Origin: an uncultured Armatimonadales bacterium | GTDB lineage: Bacteria > Armatimonadota > Armatimonadia > Armatimonadales > Capsulimonadaceae | NCBI GenBank assembly: GCA_964247915.1 | Contig: CAXTWM010000001.1 | Span: forward strand, 1-44,546 | Reading direction: 5' to 3' | DNA: 44,546 nt | The notes under the pieces: generated by a model | Databases searched by the model: none | Told to the model about the DNA's origin: nothing | Seen by the model: the letters and a program-made list of their open reading frames with translations, nothing else | Position numbers and translations under genes: made by a program | Part shown: one piece after another, positions 120-41,431 of the stretch | How the letters are laid out: each line of letters starts with the position of its first letter | How positions within the stretch are numbered: position 1 is the first letter of the stretch

Positions 120-959
120 TTAAGAATCTATTTCTGGAGATCGCAAAAGCCAGTATAAGGCCCTTTGCAGGCCTGTGGGCGATTTTTGAGATAGCTTCTT
201 GAACGTTTGCAGGATGTGTCTTTTTAGCTCAACGAACTCCTGAGACGTTGTAAAGTCTATGCTTCGGGGACGTGGTAAGGTTACCCTAATATCTTCTTGA
301 ACCCGACCTGGGCGTGCTGAGAGGATGAACAGCCGATCCGCAAGTAATATGGCCTCATCAATATCATGGGTCACAAAAACGATTGTTCGATGCGAGCGAT
401 CCCAGATTTCAAGTAATAGTTCCTGCATGGTGATCTTCGTTTGAGCATCTAATGAGCCAAACGGTTCATCCATTAGCATCACCGCCGGGTCATTCGCGAG
501 TGCTCTGGCGATGCCCACTCGTTGCTTCATGCCTCCAGACAGAGTAGCGGAATAATTATCTTCAAAGCCATTCAATCCCACACGTTTGATAAGTGCTTCT
601 GCAATAATTCGGCGTTCATCCTTTGATACACCCATCATTTTGGGGCCAAACTCTACATTTTTACGCACCGTCTTCCAGGGGAAGACGGCATGTTCTTGGA
701 ACACAACTCCTATTTGGGGATCAGGTCCTTTTAGGGCTAGGTCATCCACCAGTATTTCTCCAGATGTAGCTTTGAGAAATCCGCCTAATAGATTCAACAA
801 GGTTGATTTGCCGCACCCCGTCGGCCCCAAGATACAAACAAACTCACCTGGAAAAATCGTGAAGCTAACATCATTGAGAGCGAGAAGGGGCTTCCTTCCA
901 GGATAGCTATACGTCATACTGGTTACTTCGATTTTACCTTTGACGGCCATGTCCCTCAT
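120..959 (-). CDS. ABC transporter ATP-binding protein, NitT/TauT (nitrate/sulfonate/taurine-like) family
   Basis: Walker A GPTGCGKST, signature LSGGMKQRV, Walker B MLMDEPFGSLD and H-loop VTHD are present, with an SsuB/TauB-like overall pattern. ATG at 959 (alternative ATG at 950). Confidence 0.9.
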   Translation of the reverse strand: MRDMAVKGKIEVTSMTYSYPGRKPLLALNDVSFTIFPGEFVCILGPTGCGKSTLLNLLGGFLKATSGEILVDDLALKGPDPQIGVVFQEHAVFPWKTVRKNVEFGPKMMGVSKDERRIIAEALIKRVGLNGFEDNYSATLSGGMKQRVGIARALANDPAVMLMDEPFGSLDAQTKITMQELLLEIWDRSHRTIVFVTHDIDEAILLADRLFILSARPGRVQEDIRVTLPRPRSIDFTTSQEFVELKRHILQTFKKLSQKSPTGLQRALYWLLRSPEIDS

Positions 960-963
960 ACAA

Positions 964-1743
964 TCAGTACTTACTCGCAGAGTTCCACGGGAAGAGTAAA
1001 GAAGTCAATTTTGTGAAGATCGCATCTGCCGAGGCTCCGAGAAGGCCAAGAACAACCAAATCTACCATCATTTTGTCAACTCTGAAATCCGCATCAGCCT
1101 CCGAAATACGATAACCAACACCAGCCGAAGCTCCCGTCATTTCAGCCGCAACCAAGACCGTAAAGGCTACCGAGATACTAAGGCGCGCTCCCGCTATGAT
1201 AAAGGGCGTGGCAGATGGCAATACTACCTCAAATAGAACATCCTTGTTTTTTGCTCCCATGCTTTTCGCTGCCCAGATGTAAACCTGGTCAACATGACCT
1301 ACTCCGAGATGTGTATTGATCCAAATGGGAAAGAAGGCGGCCCAGGCGATCAAAAAGATTTTTGGCGTCTCTCCTAACCCAAACCAGACAATCGTTAAGG
1401 ATATGAATGCGATGGCAGGAATAGGACGGAAAAGGTTTATGATGCGCCCCAGTGTCACGCTGAAAAAGTGGATGCGCCCCGTTAGGCACCCAATTATAAT
1501 GCCCAGCGTCGTGCCAATCGCATAACCTAATGCGACTCGTTGAAAACTTGCCGCAATGTCTGCGCTAAGTTGATGCAACTTAAGCATGGCTAAAAAAGTT
1601 AAGAATAATTGACTGGGGCATGGATAAAGACTAGTGTTAAAGTGGCCGATGCGAGCGATTAACTCCCAGGAAAGTAAAAGAAGCAGCAACGATGCTAAAG
1701 TTAAAACGTAGTCAAAGTTCTTGCCTCTGAGTTTGTCTAGCAT
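964..1743 (-). CDS. ABC transporter permease, NitT/TauT family
   Basis: Multi-TM ORF with an EAA-type loop (AAKSMGAKNKDVLFEVVLPSATPFIIAG). The track start at 1749 is TTG; the first ATG is at 1743. It lies 5 nt upstream of the ATPase gene. Confidence 0.85.
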   Translation of the reverse strand: MLDKLRGKNFDYVLTLASLLLLLLSWELIARIGHFNTSLYPCPSQLFLTFLAMLKLHQLSADIAASFQRVALGYAIGTTLGIIIGCLTGRIHFFSVTLGRIINLFRPIPAIAFISLTIVWFGLGETPKIFLIAWAAFFPIWINTHLGVGHVDQVYIWAAKSMGAKNKDVLFEVVLPSATPFIIAGARLSISVAFTVLVAAEMTGASAGVGYRISEADADFRVDKMMVDLVVLGLLGASADAIFTKLTSLLFPWNSASKY

Positions 1744-1780
1744 TATCAAATTTTACAGCGTTCAATCCATGTAGCCGAAG

Positions 1781-2980
1781 CTATCCAGTTGGTGGCGCGG
1801 GGTCTGTCGGTGGCGCGGGGTCTGTCGGTGGCGCGGGGTCTGTCGGTGGCACGGAGGCTGTGAGCGGTAATAGAACCTGCTCATGCTGTGCTAAATAATA
1901 TGGATGAATAAGCATCCTAAAGAACTCAATCTCTTCGTGATCCGTCAGAGCACGTCCACCGGCAAGAACAACTTTATTCTCTAATAAATCTTCATGATAG
2001 GAAATCACCGCAGAATGATTATCAGCGATAATTATTCCAAGTGGAGGAATCCCTGAAGTTGAAAATTTGGGATTGTAGTTGCATTTCTTGTCAGCAAGGT
2101 ACTTTGCCACGCAGCCTTCATTCCAAGAATGAAAGAATACATGTTTATAAGCATTAGGGGTTTGCTGTCGTCCTTCTTCCACCTGCTTTTTCTTCTTGTC
2201 TAAATGCTCCTCAATGTCTTCCACCGCTTGTTTATACACACCTTCGGGATTCTCGCGCGAATCGAAGGGGATATGTTTCCCTAAAGCATTAGCCTTTAGA
2301 TCGTGAAATGCTTCTGAGTCTGTTTTAGAGCACAAAGCAATTCTAACTTTATATTCGGGATTTGTTCTAGCATGGCCTAACAATTCATCCAACTTACGAC
2401 TCAGAACTATCCCATACCGATCTAGAAGCAAACGATTGTTGTCTCTGATAGCCGATGCGTAACCGATGCTGGGTGTTAATGAGATAAATATTAACTCCTT
2501 GTTGGCCTTTCGTATTACATCAATAGCTTCCCTCATAACAGAAACTTCATCATTCAGCGATCTGCGTAGGGTGAAGAGAACGGAAATCGAAAGCGCCAAA
2601 CCCACGATGGAGATTGTGCCGAAGACAATACTGAGGGACGTACCCACATCAGATGTTAGTTTCACCCGAAGCGGCCCGTGTAGCGGCCAGATTACAATTG
2701 CCCCAATAGCAAGGACAAACAGACATGGCAGAATGATTGCTATCCAATACCTACGCTTGGGATCTGGGATTGGCTGCCTCGTCTTATATTGCCAAAAACC
2801 CACTACCAGCAACCAAAAAAATATAAGTAACAAGATCACGGAAGCAAAAACGACATCGGACTCACATGTCCAAAACACAAAGAAAGGAGCTAACACAGTG
2901 ATGAGTATGAAGAACAGCCAAATTGCTCTTCTCCAAGTAAACTCTTTGATTGACAGCCAACGCGACACTTTATTAGGCAT
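1781..2980 (-). CDS. Unknown membrane protein (about 4 N-terminal TM helices, ~250-aa soluble domain, C-terminal PPTDPA x3 tail)
   Basis: 399-aa ORF with ATG at 2980, lying between the SBP and permease genes of the ABC operon. It has hydrophobic stretches in the first ~150 aa. I recognise no catalytic motif. Confidence 0.6.
   Translation of the reverse strand: MPNKVSRWLSIKEFTWRRAIWLFFILITVLAPFFVFWTCESDVVFASVILLLIFFWLLVVGFWQYKTRQPIPDPKRRYWIAIILPCLFVLAIGAIVIWPLHGPLRVKLTSDVGTSLSIVFGTISIVGLALSISVLFTLRRSLNDEVSVMREAIDVIRKANKELIFISLTPSIGYASAIRDNNRLLLDRYGIVLSRKLDELLGHARTNPEYKVRIALCSKTDSEAFHDLKANALGKHIPFDSRENPEGVYKQAVEDIEEHLDKKKKQVEEGRQQTPNAYKHVFFHSWNEGCVAKYLADKKCNYNPKFSTSGIPPLGIIIADNHSAVISYHEDLLENKVVLAGGRALTDHEEIEFFRMLIHPYYLAQHEQVLLPLTASVPPTDPAPPTDPAPPTDPAPPTG
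1791..1854. repeat. Perfect 18-bp tandem repeat GGTGGCGCGGGGTCTGTC x3 plus a 10-bp partial copy
   Basis: Read directly: identical copies at 1791-1808, 1809-1826 and 1827-1844, then ggtggcacgg. On the minus strand it encodes (PPTDPA)n at the C-terminus of the 1781-2980 ORF. The unit is very GC-rich inside an AT-rich gene. Confidence 0.95.
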
Positions 2981-2989
2981 GTTGTTAAT

Positions 2990-3970
2990 CTATTTGTGGT
3001 TCAAGCCATCCAGCGGCTCATCAAGAATGAAATCCTTATAGTTGGGCAGCACTGCATTTTGCGGTGCAATGTTGTTCGCCTTCGCCCAGCGACCTTCATC
3101 TTGCAGAGAGGTCAGAAGGGATGGGTTAAGGACAACCTCATAGTTGTAGTTGTCCCACAGGCGAGTGAGCACTTCCGGTTCCATACCGCTATCCCTGGCA
3201 ACGATTTGAATAGCTTCTGCTCGGTTAGTTTTCATGAACATTTCCGATTTCATAAGGGAAGCAAGAAGGTTTTTCAACGCCGCTGGGTTAGATTTAGCGA
3301 AGTCACGGGAGACGACCACGTTGAACTTAGGTTGGTAAGTATTTTTGCTGGAAATAATAGTGACTTTGTTACCTAATGCCTTCTGAGCACGATAAGCAAA
3401 AGGTTCCCAGCAGAAGAATCCATCAACATCGCCGTGTGCCAGTGCCGCAACCATGTCGGGCGGACGTAGATTTACGACCTTAACGTCTGTGATATCTAAC
3501 CCTTTAGCACGGAGGTAGGAATACATCCAGTAATCTCCAGAAGTCCCGTGCGCGACGGCTAAAGTTTTACCTTTCAGGCTAGGAGTACCGTTCAGGATTG
3601 CTTTCTTCGCAAGCACAAGTTTAAGTGGGGACTCGGTCACTGTTGCGATTATGTAGAAGTTTTGGTTCTGAAACGCCGCCAAAGCCAAAGGAGTTTCTGC
3701 CACCATCGCAACGGGTGCTTTTCCTCCTAGCAGAGCATCCAAAGCGAGCCTCCCTGATGCGAAAGGCACAAGCTTAGCATTAAGCCCCGCCTGAGAGAGA
3801 AAGCCTTTATCGTTGGCAACGAACAGAGGCCCGCCATCAGGTCCCGTTGATGAGGCGATGGTCAGACTTGTGGCTGTTGGAGGATGCTCATGCGTACCAT
3901 GACATCCGTATGTGCCAGCAAGAACGAGGGGCATGACTAATGCCATAAAGATGGTTCGGATTATCTTCAT
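2990..3970 (-). CDS. ABC transporter substrate-binding protein (NMT1/SsuA-like), probable lipoprotein
   Basis: 326 aa with a signal peptide ending ...LVLAGTYGC. It has an SsuA/NMT1-type periplasmic binding pattern (GKTLAVAHGTSGDYW, DGFFCWEPF). It is the first gene of the low-GC operon. Confidence 0.85.
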   Translation of the reverse strand: MKIIRTIFMALVMPLVLAGTYGCHGTHEHPPTATSLTIASSTGPDGGPLFVANDKGFLSQAGLNAKLVPFASGRLALDALLGGKAPVAMVAETPLALAAFQNQNFYIIATVTESPLKLVLAKKAILNGTPSLKGKTLAVAHGTSGDYWMYSYLRAKGLDITDVKVVNLRPPDMVAALAHGDVDGFFCWEPFAYRAQKALGNKVTIISSKNTYQPKFNVVVSRDFAKSNPAALKNLLASLMKSEMFMKTNRAEAIQIVARDSGMEPEVLTRLWDNYNYEVVLNPSLLTSLQDEGRWAKANNIAPQNAVLPNYKDFILDEPLDGLNHK

Positions 3971-7555: not shown

Positions 7556-7966
7556 ATGTCGGATGGTCGCGAGGGGGAGCCTTCACGCACACGATATTCT
7601 TTTAATGCTCGCACTTTCGTAGCGCGAGCGCGACCCAAGATCGTGTCGGAGAAGCCCGACAAAGTGGGCGTCATCCTCACGGGGATGGTCTGGCTGCTGC
7701 TGATGTCGGCCTCCCTGTCAGTCGGAATGTGCGTCGGGCTATTTGTCTCCTACTTTGCGCCCCTGTGGGTAGCAATCGCGGCTTGCCTGGTAGCGTCTGT
7801 GATCACAGGAGTATTACTAGGTCGCTCGCTTGAGGGGGAAGCAATAGGCATAATTGTGGCGTTGCTGGTCGTGATTTTGACGGCCTTTATTTTGTTTCCA
7901 ACAATTATGAAAGTACGAGCTAACGTACTCCGGGTTCAGGCGCACCAACACCAGGGGACGCACTGA
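7556..7966 (+). CDS. Hypothetical small membrane protein (3-4 TM)
   Basis: 136-aa ORF in an AT-richer patch, with AAAGG upstream of the ATG at 7556 and long hydrophobic runs. No homology is recognisable. Confidence 0.45.
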   Translation: MSDGREGEPSRTRYSFNARTFVARARPKIVSEKPDKVGVILTGMVWLLLMSASLSVGMCVGLFVSYFAPLWVAIAACLVASVITGVLLGRSLEGEAIGIIVALLVVILTAFILFPTIMKVRANVLRVQAHQHQGTH

Positions 7967-34272: not shown

Positions 34273-34298
34273 AGGGGCGCGGCCCCTGCCGCGCCCCT
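34273..34298. terminator. Bidirectional terminator between sbcD and leuD
   Basis: AGGGGCGCGG-cccctg-CCGCGCCCCT gives a 10-bp stem. AATAAAA lies on one side and CTCTTGCTT on the other. Confidence 0.7.
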
Positions 34299-34318: not shown

Positions 34319-34933
34319 TTATGCTGCCGCCGCGCCGCACGCCCACGCGGGCCGCTTCGCTTCATACGCCGTGATGTCCGGCTCGTGTTGCAAGGTCAGT
34401 CCGATGTCGTCCAGGCCGTTCAGCAGGCAGTAGCGGCGGAACGAGTCCACCTCGAACGGCATTGAGAAGCCTTGAGTGTCCGACACAGTCAGGTTCTCTA
34501 GGTCCACCGTCATCTGGTAGCCCGGCGTCTTCGCCCGCGCCAAGAGCATCGTGATGGTTTCCTCCGGCAGCGTGACCGGCAGCATCCCGTTCTTGAAGCA
34601 GTTGTTGTAAAAGATGTCCGCATAGGACGGCGCCAGGATCGCCCGGAACCCATAGTCCTCCAGCGCCCACGGCGCGTGCTCGCGCGACGACCCGCAGCCG
34701 AAGTTCTTGCCGGTGATGAGAATCGTCGCGCCCTGATACTGCGGCTGGTTCAGCTCAAACTCTGGGTTCGTCGTCTCGCCGTCGCCCTCGTAGCGCCAGT
34801 CGAAGAACAGGAACCGCCCAAAGCCCGTGCGCTCGATGCGCTTCAGGAACTGCTTCGGGATGATCTGGTCGGTGTCCGCGTTGACCCGGTCCAGCGGGGC
34901 CGCGAGGCCGGTCAATTTCGTGAATGGTTCCAT
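34319..34933 (-). CDS. leuD: 3-isopropylmalate dehydratase small subunit
   Basis: From the ATG at 34933: [33 protein letters not shown]...[17 protein letters not shown]. Confidence 0.9.
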
Positions 34934-34943
34934 GTTACGACGG

Positions 34944-35564
34944 TTACTCCTGTGAAAATATGTTGCCCACCGGCACGAGGAGGCCGGGGAAGACTCGGGA
35001 CGCGGCAGTGTCACCCTGCCCGTAAACATTCGCACTGTCGCCTTGCTCCGCCGAGAGGCGCATGACCTCAACCGTCTGGTCGCCGGACCGGACGATCCAG
35101 ACTTCCCGCACGTCCACCGCCCGATAGTCCGCGACCTTCGCGGCCAGCACGGAGGCCGTGTCGGACGGCGAGACGATCTCCACCACTAGCTCCGGCGCGG
35201 GCGACAGCGGGGCGTACTCGTCCGAAGGCGCATTCTGCCCCAAGCGCTCACGGCTGATGAACAGCAGGTCCGGCTGGCGGCTGCGGAGTGGCTGATAGGT
35301 AATCTCCACGTCGCAGGGAGCGATGACGGCCTCCCCTCGTCCCGACGCCTGCTCATAATCCTGAAAGCGGCGGAGGAGACGGCCGAGTATCCGCTGATGT
35401 CTGCGTGTCGGGCTGGGCAACAGATTGTCTCCATACAAACGATAGACCTTCCATCCGTCGAGGATGTCATAGCGAGCCATCTCCTCCGGCCCGCTGATGT
35501 ATTCCTCGTAGGTCATCGGGCGCGTGATGCCCGGAACGTCCGCTTTCGGCTCGGCAACGGCCAT
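34944..35564 (-). CDS. Uma2-family (DUF820) putative endonuclease
   Basis: [21 protein letters not shown]...RHQRILGRL...[12 protein letters not shown]...[16 protein letters not shown]. The ATG at 35564 is preceded by AAGGAGAAGG. Its GC is host-like. Confidence 0.8.
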
Positions 35565-35572
35565 CTGCCTTC

Positions 35573-35591
35573 TCCTTTCAGTTCTTCTCCC
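35573..35591. repeat. Left copy of direct repeat TCCTTTCAGTTCTTCTCCC (orphan copy of the leuC 3' end)
   Basis: The 12-bp core AGTTCTTCTCCC (35580-35591) is identical to 36746-36757. On the minus strand it reads ...GAG AAG AAC TGA (E-K-N-stop), mirroring the real leuC terminus. Confidence 0.7.
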
Positions 35592-35610
35592 TGCCCACAA
35601 TGCTTATGTG

Positions 35611-36282
35611 CTACTTCAGCCCTTTGACTTCAGCCAGAATGCTTTTCGTGATGCGGGTTGACCTGTCTAATAAATCCGCGTCTACCGATCCGGCGAAGCC
35701 ATGCACTGCGGTGTTTCGGACCGGCAGCAATTGGCTCAGAATGTCGCAATCTTCCGGGTCCATAAGACCATAGGCAACGCCTTGTTTGATGATTGCCGCC
35801 GGTGCGTTGTTGATAAAGCTGGCCGGAATGCGCTCCAGCCCGATCCGAAGGCTTGCTTCTAATGCTGACCAGAGCAGGATGACCGCTGCCGGTGAGTCGC
35901 CAATGGAAGCCAGATACTTGCTGTTATTGATGCGCTCTTCGATCTTCTGGATTGGAATTGTAGGCTGCTTTGACTCGGCTGAAAGCGTCCCATTTTCGGG
36001 CGTCTCCGGGGAGTTACTAAGAACTAGTTCCAGCCTCCAACCGGGGTGGCGCTCTACGGACTTTGCTAATTCTTCTAGAGTTCGGGACCGTGCGACCTGG
36101 CCGTAAGATTGCACTTCTACAACAACGGCCTCTGCCCCATTCTTAGCTAAAAGATCGGGCTTGAAGCCCTGTAGAAACTCCGGGAGCTGTCCGGCATCGG
36201 GTTCCTCCACGACCTGATAGCCGCGCTGCCTGTACCGATGCGCTATGGCAGCGACGCGCTCCTGATGAAATGCCGTTTGCAT
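35611..36282 (-). CDS. Two-domain protein: N-terminal PD-(D/E)xK-like nuclease fold, C-terminal HEPN-like domain (Rx4H)
   Basis: The N-terminus YQVVEEPD...FKPDLLAKNGAEAVVVEVQS follows the E...PD...ExK pattern, with Q in the K position. The C-terminus is helical with LLWSALEASLR and LPVRNTAVHGF, which fits the HEPN R-x4-6-H signature. 223 aa, low GC. Confidence 0.5.
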   Translation of the reverse strand: MQTAFHQERVAAIAHRYRQRGYQVVEEPDAGQLPEFLQGFKPDLLAKNGAEAVVVEVQSYGQVARSRTLEELAKSVERHPGWRLELVLSNSPETPENGTLSAESKQPTIPIQKIEERINNSKYLASIGDSPAAVILLWSALEASLRIGLERIPASFINNAPAAIIKQGVAYGLMDPEDCDILSQLLPVRNTAVHGFAGSVDADLLDRSTRITKSILAEVKGLK

Positions 36283-36319
36283 GCTTGCTGCTCCTGTTCA
36301 GGACTCAAGACGTTGTATG

Positions 36320-36706
36320 CTATTCCCACTGGACGAGGACGTGCAGGAAGTCGCTTTTTGATCGGAAGGCAGATGCCAGCACGGAAAAACTAATCTCGAT
36401 CACCGCTTCAGGACTCAGAACATCAATTTTCCGGCAGGTGACACTGACCACCTGCTTGTCATCAGCGTAGACAAGCCCCTTTAACTGATCCAGGACCGGC
36501 TTAATGATGTTATCCACATCCATGAGGTCTGATGTGTAGAAGTATGTGAGTATCACGCCGACGGGAGCAGTGAGCGGGGGGTTGTTTCCAGGCCAGCGAT
36601 TAACAGCAGCCCGTCTCAGATCCCGTTTATAGTTCTCGATGCGGCTTCTGTTCTGCGTTTGCACCGTGCAAGGAACCCCAAGACGTACAAACTCAAATGT
36701 CAGCAT
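36320..36706 (-). CDS. RusA-like Holliday-junction resolvase family protein
   Basis: SDLMDVDNIIKPVLDQLKGLVYADDKQVV matches the RusA core D-x-D-N-x2-K-x3-D-x-L...DD-x-Q-V-V (E. coli RusA: [26 protein letters not shown]). The size (128 aa) and the N-terminal beta-strand pattern (FEFVRLGVP) also fit. Confidence 0.65.
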   Translation of the reverse strand: MLTFEFVRLGVPCTVQTQNRSRIENYKRDLRRAAVNRWPGNNPPLTAPVGVILTYFYTSDLMDVDNIIKPVLDQLKGLVYADDKQVVSVTCRKIDVLSPEAVIEISFSVLASAFRSKSDFLHVLVQWE

Positions 36707-36740
36707 GGTGTGGCTGCTCTATTCGCCTTGCTGCGTTGTG

Positions 36741-36757
36741 TCCTTAGTTCTTCTCCC
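36741..36757. repeat. Right copy of direct repeat TCCTTAGTTCTTCTCCC (contains the genuine leuC stop codon)
   Basis: The minus strand reads ...GAG TGG GAG AAG AAC TAA GGA. It matches 35573-35591 apart from a 2-nt indel. Confidence 0.7.
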
Positions 36758-38150
36758 ACTCCCGGATGTCCACGAGATGACCCTCGATGGCGGCGGCGGC
36801 GGCCATCTGGGGGCTAACGAGGTGGGTGCGCCCGCCCTTGCCCTGGCGGCCCTCAAAGTTGCGGTTGGAGGTGGACGCGCAGCGCTCACCGGGCTGCAAG
36901 ATGTCCGGGTTCATGCCCAGGCACATGGAGCAGCCGGCCTCGCGCCAGTCAAAGCCCGCGTCTTTGAAGACCCGGTCCAGGCCCTCGGCCTCGGCCTGGA
37001 GCTTGACCTGGACGGAGCCGGGGACGACCAGGGCGCGCAGGCCCGCGCGGACCGTGTGGCCCTTCAGGACGGACGCGGCGGCGCGCAGGTCCTCGATGCG
37101 CCCATTCGTACAGGAGCCGATGAAGACGGTATCGAGTTCGATCCCGCGAATCGGGACGCCCGCGTCCAGCCCCATGTACTCCAAAGCGCGCTCGGCGGCC
37201 CGGCGGTCGGCGGGGTCGGCGTAGTCGTCGGGGGAGGGGACCGCCGCCGTGATCGGGACGACCATGCCGGGGCTGGTGCCCCACGAGACGTGCGGGGCGA
37301 TCTCGCTCGCGTCCAACTCGACCACGGTGTCATAGGACGCGCCTGCGTCGGTCGGCAGTTCGCGCCAGGCGGCGACGGCCTCCTCCCAGGCATCGCCCGC
37401 CGGGGCGGACGGCTTGCCCTGGATGTAGGCGAACGTCTTCTCGTCCGGGGCAATCATGCCCGCCCGCGCGCCCGCCTCGATGCTCATGTTGCAGACCGTC
37501 ATCCGGCCCTCCATCGAGAGCGACCGGATGGCTTCGCCGGTGTATTCCACGACATAGCCCGTGGCGCCGTCGGTTCCGATCTTGCCGATGATGGCGAGGA
37601 CCATGTCTTTGGCCGTCACCCCCAGGCCGAGCGACCCGTTGACGCGGATCTCCATCGTCCTGGGCCGCGACTGCGGCAGGCACTGGGTCGCCAGGACGTG
37701 CTCCACCTCGCTCGTCCCGATGCCGAAGGCCAGCGCGCCGAACGCGCCGTGCGTGCTGGTGTGGCTGTCGCCGCACACGATGGTCATGCCGGGCTGGGTC
37801 AGGCCGAGTTCCGGGCCGATGACGTGGACAATGCCCTGGCGCTGGGAATGGATGTCGTAGAGCGTGACACCGAACTCGCGGCAGTTCTCCGACAGCGCCT
37901 CCATCTGCTTTTTGGAGATCTGGTCCACGATGGGCAGCGAGCGGTCCGTCGTCGGGACGTTGTGGTCCATCGTGGCGACGGTCAGGTCGGGCCGGCGCAC
38001 CTTGCGCCCGGTCAGCCGCAGGCCCTCGAACGCCTGCGGCGAGGTCACCTCATGGACCAGGTGCAGGTCCACATACAGCAGTGCGGGCTGGCCCGCCTCT
38101 TCGCCGACGACGTGGGCGTCCCAGATCTTCTCGAACATTGTTTTGGGCAT
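36744..38150 (-). CDS. leuC: 3-isopropylmalate dehydratase large subunit
   Basis: Aconitase-family motifs [25 protein letters not shown] and CSMCLGMN. 468 aa. Confidence 0.95.
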
Positions 38151-40851: not shown

Positions 40852-40871
40852 AAATGAGGAGTGAACCGAAC

Positions 40872-41141
40872 ATGATGACCATTGCCTTGCCTTCGGAACT
40901 GGAAGAACTGGTGAACGCCAAAATTCAGAGCGGACAGTACCACTCCGCTGGTGAGGTCATCCGCGAAGGGCTGCGTCTGCTGGAAGAAAAAGACATGCTC
41001 CGGCAGATCAAGCTCGAACAACTCCGCAAAGACCTTGCGGTCGCGGTGGAAGCCGAGGAGCGGGGCGAAGTGGCTCCGCTGGACATAGAAGCCATCATCA
41101 GGGAAGGCAAGCGTCGCTTGGCAATGCGGGAGCCGAAGTAA
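40872..41141 (+). CDS. parD: ParD-family (COG3609/CC2985-type) antitoxin
   Basis: MMTIALPSELEELVNAKIQSGQYHSAGEVIREGLRLLEEK is a ribbon-helix-helix antitoxin pattern. AGGAG lies 10 nt upstream of the ATG at 40872. Confidence 0.8.
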   Translation: MMTIALPSELEELVNAKIQSGQYHSAGEVIREGLRLLEEKDMLRQIKLEQLRKDLAVAVEAEERGEVAPLDIEAIIREGKRRLAMREPK

Positions 41142-41431
41142 TGGCACAAGTGCAGCGGACGCGGCCGGCGGAAATAGACCTACTGGAGATCTGGACCTAC
41201 ATTGCGGAGGACAGTGCCGAGGCTGCGGAAGAAGTCCTGCGCTCCATCGCTCAGAAGTGCCGGGACTGCGCGGAATTTCCAGGCATGGGCCGCCGACGCG
41301 ATGAGCTTTCGCCCGGTCTGCGTAGCGTGGTTCAGGGAAGCTATATTATCTTCTATCGGCCTTTAGAAGATGGCATTCGTCTCATGCGCGTCGTTCATGG
41401 GGCGAGAGACCTGCCGAGCCTGTTTGACTGA
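41141..41431 (+). CDS. parE: RelE/ParE-family toxin
   Basis: The 96-aa protein shows ...DLLEIWTYIAEDS...FPGMGRRRDELSPGLRSVVQGSYIIFYRPLEDGIRLMRVVHGARD. Its start overlaps the parD stop (TAATG). Confidence 0.85.
   Translation: MAQVQRTRPAEIDLLEIWTYIAEDSAEAAEEVLRSIAQKCRDCAEFPGMGRRRDELSPGLRSVVQGSYIIFYRPLEDGIRLMRVVHGARDLPSLFD

Follow-up and report, generated by a model that had tools for sequence, protein, structure and literature searches.

Direct repeats of the 3′ end of a gene around foreign DNA are typical of integrase-mediated islands; at tRNA, tmRNA and protein-gene 3′ ends, such islands consist of compositionally distinct DNA beside a target gene that stays intact. A second architecture is found in Rhs/contact-dependent inhibition (CDI) loci and in T6SS (type VI secretion system) arrays of Vibrio cholerae, in which a conserved upstream gene serves as a homology anchor, cargo lands beside this anchor, and the old 3′ end of the anchor is retained downstream together with the older cargo, so that arrays grow. 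No dedicated recombinase takes part, and the phylogeny of the cargo is incongruent with that of the host. For the effector–immunity (orphan immunity) arrays of V. cholerae and for the displacement of Rhs C-termini, this anchor-plus-displacement process has been proposed to proceed by homology-facilitated illegitimate recombination (HFIR) (PMC5361080). Here we analyze a locus of comparable anatomy in a 44,546-nucleotide stretch of DNA from an uncultured Armatimonadales bacterium (contig CAXTWM010000001.1; the whole stretch is hereafter called the window), where a pair of low-GC genes, encoding a RusA-like protein and an AHJR-HEPN fusion, lies between leuC and leuD, next to a Uma2 gene and a decayed copy of the leuC 3′ end.

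The locus shares with these arrays the succession of an intact anchor gene, new cargo, a displaced anchor tail and older cargo, with a tail of variable length and no recombinase. Displaced 3′ fragments of the anchor gene lie downstream of the cargo in the window and in the related loci L081, L082, L096 and L110 (L-numbers label the comparison loci and contigs), with two copies each in L081 and L096, and independently in L063. Unlike the arrays, the anchor is here the housekeeping gene leuC and not a toxin gene, the cargo consists of nuclease/HEPN genes and not of effector–immunity pairs, and the array as a whole lies within the leuCD operon, upstream of leuD. The locus also differs from 3′-end islands, since it has no integrase, its repeat varies in length, and the foreign block spans only ~1.15 kb and two genes. 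By analogy, it would represent an anchor-and-displacement capture of a known type, new in its housekeeping anchor and in having an uncharacterized HEPN-containing pair as cargo.

The leuC tail copy between leuC and leuD

Five genes follow each other on the minus strand: leuC, for the large subunit of 3-isopropylmalate dehydratase (36744–38150; PF00330, 620.8 bits); the RusA-family structure-specific endonuclease gene, first of the two cassette genes (36320–36706, 128 aa; PF05866, E 1.6e-13); the AHJR-HEPN fusion gene (35611–36282, 223 aa; PF18743 over residues 4–119); a Uma2-family PD-(D/E)xK gene, Uma2b (34944–35564, 206 aa; PF05685, E 1.6e-26); and leuD, for the small subunit (34319–34933; PF00694, E 1.3e-40), which begins 10 nt downstream of Uma2. 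An initial annotation, made from the sequence alone, had described three extra minus-strand genes splitting leuC from leuD, two of them in an AT-richer block, and both statements are confirmed. GC content falls to 0.51–0.57 over ~35570–36740, against 0.63–0.75 in the flanks. GC at third codon positions (GC3) is 0.60 in both cassette genes (0.605 in the RusA-like gene) versus 0.93 in leuC and 0.88 in leuD, and lies between 0.82 and 0.94 for most genes of the window. The same contrast is found in every relative, with GC3 of 0.47–0.61 in the cargo and 0.77–0.93 in leuC and leuD.

The block is bounded by an imperfect direct repeat, TCCTTTCAGTTCTTCTCCC at 35573–35591 and TCCTTAGTTCTTCTCCC at 36741–36757, exactly where it had been placed; a repeat-finding program aligns the two copies over 27 nt (74% identity) at a spacing of 1166 bp. 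Its 12-mer AGTTCTTCTCCC is found at 35580 (35580–35591) and 36746 only in the 44.5 kb, where shuffled sequences predict 0.01 occurrences, and a 14-mer search allowing two mismatches returns the same two sites only; the repeat is therefore not a generic stop-codon or ribosome-binding site (RBS) motif that recurs at gene ends, and the earlier view that it was unlikely to arise by chance holds. The left copy belongs to leuC′ (~35578–35603, minus strand), a decayed copy of the leuC 3′ end that terminates in E-K-N-TGA and is recognized by its uniqueness and by its homology to the copies of relatives, the source being the last ~14–88 nt of leuC (36744–36830). Between the stop codon of leuC′ and the start of Uma2 lies an RBS, AAGGAGAAGG (35568–35577, minus strand), which presumably marks a former leuC–Uma2 junction.

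Contigs of relatives were reached via proteins homologous to Uma2 and to the 223-aa protein. They share the flanks of the window (LysR, methyltransferase, metallo-beta-lactamase and leuC before the interval, leuD and metallophosphoesterase after it), and their LeuC is 87–97% identical to that of the window; the range widens to 80–97% with the nearest species-representative genome in a LeuC scan, a Chthonomonadaceae metagenome-assembled genome (MAG; L001, 80%). In L001 (8001–13000), no leuD lies within 8 kb after leuC, and an opposite-strand open reading frame (ORF) of 136 aa is located downstream.

The longest copy of the tail is kept in L082, where an 81–88-nt leuC′ stands immediately 3′ of the AHJR stop codon. 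Its final 36 nt match the tail of L082's own leuC at 35 of 36 positions, while upstream of that segment it carries substitutions and a 7-nt deletion; it is closer to an L096-type leuC tail than to L082's own leuC, which suggests an origin in another lineage. Immediately upstream of Uma2b, L093 and L096 have shorter copies of 29 nt, L110 has one of 21 nt and L081 one of at least 15 nt; a second, decayed copy follows AHJR in L081, L093 and L096. The leuC′ of the window has a 9-nt deletion in common with the decayed post-AHJR copy of L081 and L096. Because the relatives keep homologous copies, the repeat in the window is what erosion has left of a genuine duplicate of the leuC 3′ end, and because the deletion is common to the window, L081 and L096, this duplication predates their split. 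A rival account, in which chance or a generic motif produced the repeat and the low-GC genes were inherited vertically, could appeal to the short exact match in the window (12 nt) and to the presence of cargo at this site in all relatives. It has to contend with a 12-mer unique to the two boundaries, with the ~80-nt copy at the homologous position in L082 and with conflicting cassette and host phylogenies (see below); the L082 copy and the leuC′ alignments of relatives led us to reject its chance and generic-motif part, and the whole can be practically discounted.

Copies of the tail recur as part of a unit, leuC′-TGA-RAGGAGCAGGC-ATGGCCGT, which precedes Uma2 genes in L081, L082, L096 and L110. 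In L081 and L096, two Uma2 paralogues (48% identical) each follow such a unit, and the arrangement in the window would most simply derive from a two-unit state of this kind via deletion between the repeated units. A separate stretch of 10–16 nt in which the Uma2 start (CAGATGGCCGTTGCCG) resembles leuC codons −65 to −50 was taken as chance, as it is not collinear with the tail copy.

The initial annotation had read the repeat as a target duplication or an att-type scar. The duplication stands, as one of the leuC 3′ end. An integrase-made att scar is unlikely, because the duplicated length varies and what the copies share is no more than coding sequence of leuC. Site-specific integration in its full form would take the leuC tail as attB, the repeats as attL and attR, and an integrase acting in trans or since lost, for example with a decayed prophage bearing RusA; the direct repeats of a gene 3′ end are indeed typical of integrase islands, and RusA is common in phages, as its PHROG matches indicate. 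However, none of more than ten loci holds an integrase, and neither an integrase nor a transposase or flanking inverted repeats occur in the window (in keeping with what had been reported for it) or in any related locus; the duplication is of variable length, 21 to 81–88 nt, and measures 36 nt in L063, whose cargo is different; no other phage genes lie nearby; and in all other contexts the pair stands alone as a unit of two genes. Moreover, AHJR-HEPN and a distant homologue found no relative by tblastn in 50,697 phage records, AHJR-HEPN had no match in PHROG and none in a pattern-limited IMG/VR scan, and the RusA-like protein gave one marginal match in the phage records. Site-specific integration is thus very improbable. 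Two further origins were rejected: a transposon or insertion sequence, with neither a transposase nor inverted repeats at the block boundaries, and a prophage remnant, given the lack of phage relatives of AHJR-HEPN and of other phage genes nearby.

Contents of the slot and the route of arrival

The contents of the leuC–leuD slot vary among relatives. RusA and AHJR-HEPN occupy it in the window, L081, L082, L083, L084, L086, L093 and L096. In L110–L112 and L095, RusA is accompanied by a HEPN-only protein of 127–130 aa, which corresponds to the HEPN portion of the fusion alone and has lost both the AHJR nuclease domain and the Rx4H motif; in L095, a 4x assembly, RusA is also truncated. In L109, a 4.1-Mb circular genome, the slot (L109:5060–5996) holds instead an SMI1_KNR4 gene (196 aa) and a 110-aa HEPN-like protein. 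Uma2 is present in no copy (L084, L086), one copy or two.

Several local features of these loci were also recorded. The HEPN-only variant cassette (L110:5178–5959, L111, L112 and L095:5324–5982) is shared by contigs that come from several independent samples, an indication of a HEPN partner that is stable and non-catalytic. In L083 (11340–11926), apparently the same SMI1-like gene as in L109 (N-terminus MGPLEWKA) is split into ORFs of 86 and 111 aa between two Uma2 genes. In L093 (3855–4258), and in L096 as well, leuC and RusA are separated by 404 bp of inserted non-coding DNA, in which a ~17-nt unit (GAAGGAAATTGCCATAA) is present about five times in tandem, and in this lineage the end of leuC has changed from EKN* to ENR*. 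In L095 (18–1688), a gene for an OLD-like AAA_15/AAA_21-TOPRIM nuclease lies ~2 kb upstream of leuC, adjoining the LysR gene.

The cargo is polymorphic and at odds with the host tree. Both leuC and leuD group the window with L082, L110, L095 and L096, followed by L083, then by L109 with L084, and then by L086, and the cargo types are interleaved across these trees. Nucleotide identities point the same way: between the window and L082 they reach 91.3% in leuC and 89.7% in leuD but 78.5% in RusA, 79.2% in AHJR and 73.2% in Uma2b; between the window and L110, 91.1% in leuC but 63.3% in RusA; against L096, identity is about 85–89% throughout. These incongruent identities, together with the resemblance of the L082 leuC′ to an L096-type tail, indicate that the interval has been exchanged between lineages by recombination. 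An insertion that is recent or private to this genome is contradicted by the cargo found in every related locus and by the 9-nt deletion shared with L081 and L096; the event is old, since it predates the split from these two. The empty leuC–leuD or leuC–Uma2–leuD sites expected among relatives were not found, the only alternative state being that of L109. The relatives are therefore alike in lacking an empty site, but they neither all carry the same two genes nor show host-like composition in the cargo.

A parallel emerged from other phyla. The leuC–leuD interval was examined in 79 other species taken from the LeuC scan of species-representative genomes; the gap is below 100 bp in most of them and exceeds 300 bp in 13, at least five of which hold toxin–antitoxin (TA) or nuclease-type genes. 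The contents of large gaps include three tandem Uma2 genes (L043), DUF2281 with PIN (L056), MNT with HepT (L057), DUF4258 with an MqsA-like gene (L070) and a weak Tse2-like match (L051). In L063 (1432–1985), from a Dehalococcoidia MAG, the order is leuC, hicB, hicA, a 36-nt leuC′ and leuD: the leuC tail is directly duplicated around the hicBA cassette over 36 nt (35/36), the downstream copy abuts the leuD RBS, and hicA is a pseudogene with an in-frame stop. That this anatomy recurs in an unrelated phylum, around cargo of another kind, speaks for a mechanism independent of the cargo; L063 is the only one of the large gaps where leuC-tail or other flanking repeats were found. Elsewhere in this sample, the leuC–leuD gap of L012 (9637–10150) contains a tandem duplication of ~283–295 bp, and a 19-nt exact match (ATGAACCCGGACATCATCC) is shared by leuC and a cytochrome-c-like gene in the gap; the corresponding match in L008 is 16 nt with one mismatch, and these matches are possibly due to chance.

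The explanation that we favor, with moderate confidence when taken as a whole, is the following. In this Armatimonadota-like lineage, small genes of nuclease or toxin type would long have used the leuC–leuD gap as a landing slot of polymorphic content, RusA and AHJR-HEPN being among them as a conflict module. Incoming DNA would be captured by recombination for which the conserved leuC provides the anchor, while the second joint forms within the resident leuC tail, by HFIR or, equivalently, when a circle with a leuC tail integrates through one crossover. Such an event would displace the old leuC tail and the older cargo (Uma2) downstream and leave leuC intact, and no element-encoded recombinase would be needed. 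Later, cassettes would be swapped between lineages via recombination in the flanks.

The polarity of arrival could also have been the opposite. A leuC–RusA–AHJR–leuD arrangement would then be the resident state, and a leuC′–Uma2 unit, donated by a relative with leuC–Uma2–leuD, would have been imported later, anchored on leuD and joined illegitimately after the AHJR stop codon, so that the repeat would be the scar of the arrival of Uma2 and not of the low-GC cassette. L084 and L086 lend weight to this order, being deeper on the leuC and leuD trees and having RusA-AHJR directly abutting leuD, with neither Uma2 nor leuC′. A Uma2 gene, moreover, accompanies the leuC′-RBS-ATGGCCGT unit in every case (L081 and L096 each have two), Uma2b-like proteins outnumber close AHJR relatives (291 versus 18), and the leuC′ of L082 resembles the leuC tail of another lineage. 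On the other hand, hicBA in L063 lies between leuC and a leuC′ that abuts leuD, which is the geometry of a cassette that arrived last, two leuC′ copies are more simply stacked from the leuC side, and L109, sister to L084 on the host trees, has Uma2b, so that a loss of Uma2 in L084 is equally parsimonious. We regard the reverse order as rather unlikely; the geometry of L063 and the stacked copies of L081 and L096 favor the newest cargo beside leuC, which would make RusA-AHJR, rather than leuC′-Uma2, the probable last arrival.

Apart from L084 and L086, other observations weigh against capture beside leuC as set out above. Neither an empty leuC–leuD site nor a leuC–Uma2–leuD site, the latter recognizable by a single ...GAGAAGAACTGARAGGAG-ATG junction, occurs in the examined loci of the clade, and the insertion event is reconstructed, not observed. 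L083 has Uma2 genes but no recognizable leuC′. Several relatives are represented by 4x long-read assemblies, and some of the apparent pseudogenes (RusA in L082, and L095) may consequently be assembly errors. Finally, measured frequencies of HFIR are low (PMC5361080).

The RusA-like and AHJR-HEPN pair

Pfam and Foldseek matches agree with the earlier assignment of the three genes to a RusA-like protein, a nuclease–HEPN fusion and Uma2. The RusA-like protein scores 51.8 bits against PF05866 (cut-off 22.8) and matches PHROG RusA-like families at E 3e-14, and residues D63, D65, N66, K69, D82 and D83 are invariant in the family alignment. RusA itself is the Holliday-junction resolvase of lambdoid prophages, with the catalytic residues D70, D72, K76 and D91 in Escherichia coli. 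The catalytic Asp and Lys are conserved here, while identity to the E. coli RusA reference sequence used in the alignment is only ~24%. The protein further differs from RusA in an extra C-terminal segment, in its location outside a phage context and in its obligate pairing with AHJR-HEPN. A single-sequence search of the PDB gave nothing useful. It is most readily described as a RusA-family endonuclease, for which Holliday-junction cleavage is only predicted.

The 223-aa partner scores 94.3 bits against PF18743 (cut-off 26.1), the AHJR-like family, which has an archaeal-Holliday-junction-resolvase-like restriction-endonuclease fold. In its nuclease motif, D43 and E56 are conserved. The family consensus keeps a Lys at the PD-(D/E)xK position (VEVK), whereas the window protein and most clade members have Gln there (Gln58; codon at 36109–36111), and the DNase activity of the domain may be altered by this replacement. 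In the C-terminal half, R146 is invariant, and the HEPN motif R189-NTAV-H194-G195 (R-x4-H-G) is invariant or nearly so in family alignments. In Foldseek searches with an AlphaFold2 model (pLDDT 78.7), the top PDB matches were the HEPN/HepT structures 2hsb, 7bxo and 5yep (TM-score on target 0.53–0.69, probability 1.0), and the N-terminal domain matched the Hjc structures 4tkd, 1ob8 and 2wiz (~0.43–0.49, likewise with probability 1.0). The model and the motifs together identify the protein as a predicted fusion of an Hjc-like PD-(D/E)xK nuclease with a C-terminal HEPN domain. The C-terminal half alone had no Pfam match, matches to HepT-like, RiboL-PSP and MtlR families were weak, below threshold and confined to some relatives, and NCBIfam gave no match for the window proteins. 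Both cassette genes are under purifying selection, with ratios of nonsynonymous to synonymous substitution (dN/dS) of 0.06–0.12 for the RusA-like gene and 0.10–0.24 for AHJR-HEPN.

The closest described system to the second protein is HepT/MntA (HEPN-MNT), a type VII TA module, with which it shares the HEPN fold, the conserved Rx4-6H motif, the small two-gene operon and, in HepT, the best structural matches. It differs in having no MNT partner: HEPN is fused to an Hjc-like nuclease, its partner is of the RusA family in the contexts examined, and no Pfam or NCBIfam HepT model matches above threshold. The neighboring Uma2b, in turn, is a clear member of the Uma2 family (PF05685) and matches the PADLOC candidate PDC-S03 (E 3.7e-24), with 291 homologues at E ≤ 1e-40; what distinguishes it here is the occurrence in zero to two tandem copies, each after a remnant of the leuC tail.

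The search for the same pair elsewhere, which the initial annotation had suggested, revealed that the pair is widespread and not unique to this locus. RusA-like and AHJR-HEPN genes form a strictly linked operon in several phyla, with the former immediately upstream of the latter and often overlapping it. The pair was found in cyanobacteria-like contigs (36–40% identity), in 11 of 13 metagenome (soil) loci with different flanks and GC contents of 52–67%, and in all five alphaproteobacterial plasmids, namely an Agrobacterium pTi, three Rhizobium plasmids and one from Azospirillum; in the metagenome and plasmid loci, identities are 25–47%. In three annotated plasmids, NCBI calls the upstream gene 'RusA family crossover junction endodeoxyribonuclease'. 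The two-domain AHJR-HEPN family comprises at least 554 clusters (50% identity) of full-length relatives at E ≤ 1e-30, nearly all of 215–230 aa; exact-protein look-ups returned no identical copies of the two cassette proteins.

The proposal of the initial annotation that the genes constitute a defence or addiction-type module is plausible, and we tentatively adopt it for the RusA and AHJR-HEPN pair, seen as an accessory module of conflict type. Binding or cleavage of branched DNA, such as phage replication or recombination intermediates, would fall to the two junction-nuclease folds, and the HEPN domain would serve as an RNase effector. This role is favored by the patchy, replaceable distribution, by the foreign composition, by the company of Uma2, SMI1_KNR4 and TA genes and by the conserved catalytic motifs. 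The context is of conflict type in several places: SMI1_KNR4, an immunity-protein family, can occupy the slot (L109), Uma2 matches PDC-S03, and in plasmid pT136b of Rhizobium sp. T136 (L114) the pair lies beside a DUF6088 and AbiEii toxin pair, IS5 and a gene for an ATP-binding protein. Weighing in the other direction, PADLOC-DB v2.0.0 gave no match for the RusA-like or AHJR-HEPN proteins of the window, L087 or pTi, which also bears out the earlier view that the pair was undescribed as a defence system, and the searched literature contained no description of the pair and no link to defence. The Gln at the position of the catalytic-motif Lys and the weak Foldseek E-values (~3.5e-3 to 3e-2; 3.5e-3 to 1e-2 for the HEPN matches) count on the same side, as do the neighbors in pTi_CFBP2177 (L113), where the pair lies beside genes for LigD, ImuA and a Y-family polymerase (PolY).

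These pTi neighbors are what a housekeeping-type accessory of DNA repair or recombination would lead one to expect, that is, a pair acting in Holliday-junction or stalled-fork processing whose position in leuCD is incidental. Intact RusA catalytic residues, an Hjc-like fold and strong purifying selection would all fit such a role. Nevertheless, an RNase domain of the HEPN type is atypical for repair, the pair is patchy and replaceable in close relatives (SMI1_KNR4 in L109; loss of the AHJR domain and Rx4H in L110 and L095), its composition is persistently foreign, its tree is incongruent with that of the host, and its neighbors in Rhizobium are AbiEii and IS5. A repair accessory is therefore unlikely, though it is the chief competitor of the conflict role. 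A more speculative idea, to which we give very little credence, is that the pair is itself a self-promoting cassette that dispenses with a recombinase. Flanked by copies of a conserved gene tail, it would excise and integrate through single crossovers of short homology, which its own two nucleases of Holliday-junction-resolvase type would resolve, with retention enforced by the HEPN RNase; if true, this would be a new kind of mobile element, parasitizing homologous recombination of the host where essential genes end.

Transcription, other features of the window and implications

No promoter-like site was found between leuC and leuD by pattern search, and the leuD RBS likely sits within the 3′ end of Uma2. 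A terminator-like hairpin follows leuD on the minus strand (34273–34287; two overlapping matches, 34272/34273–34287) and is the only such match outside coding sequence in the leuC–leuD stretch, a further one at 36157–36169 being internal to the AHJR-HEPN gene; the total of three matches is at chance level, with 2.8 expected from shuffles. As no promoter-like site lies inside and the sole non-coding hairpin comes after leuD, the five genes from leuC to leuD are likely co-transcribed.

Elsewhere in the window, the minus-strand block at 120–3970 encodes an ABC ATPase, a permease, a 399-aa protein without a Pfam match and an NMT1-type binding protein; these four genes have GC3 of 0.43–0.50, against 0.82–0.94 for most genes, and for this reason the block is probably another acquired segment. 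On the plus strand, a ParD antitoxin/ParE toxin pair (95 and 96 aa; 40854–41431) has GC3 of 0.65–0.69, below that of surrounding genes, and a 136-aa ORF without a Pfam match (7556–7966) has GC3 of 0.62 amid high-GC3 genes.

For the organism, the arrangement means that leuD apparently relies on read-through of three nuclease genes, which could stabilize the cargo or tie it to the regulation of the leucine operon. The locus would offer a natural example of foreign genes captured without a recombinase, with the 3′ end of a housekeeping gene as anchor and an independent parallel in another phylum, and it suggests that operon-internal gaps such as leuC–leuD are recurrent niches for toxin and nuclease cassettes. 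Beyond this site, RusA and AHJR-HEPN constitute a widespread, linked and apparently unstudied gene pair, and since its Agrobacterium, Rhizobium and Azospirillum hosts are culturable, a role in defence, addiction or repair can be tested there directly.

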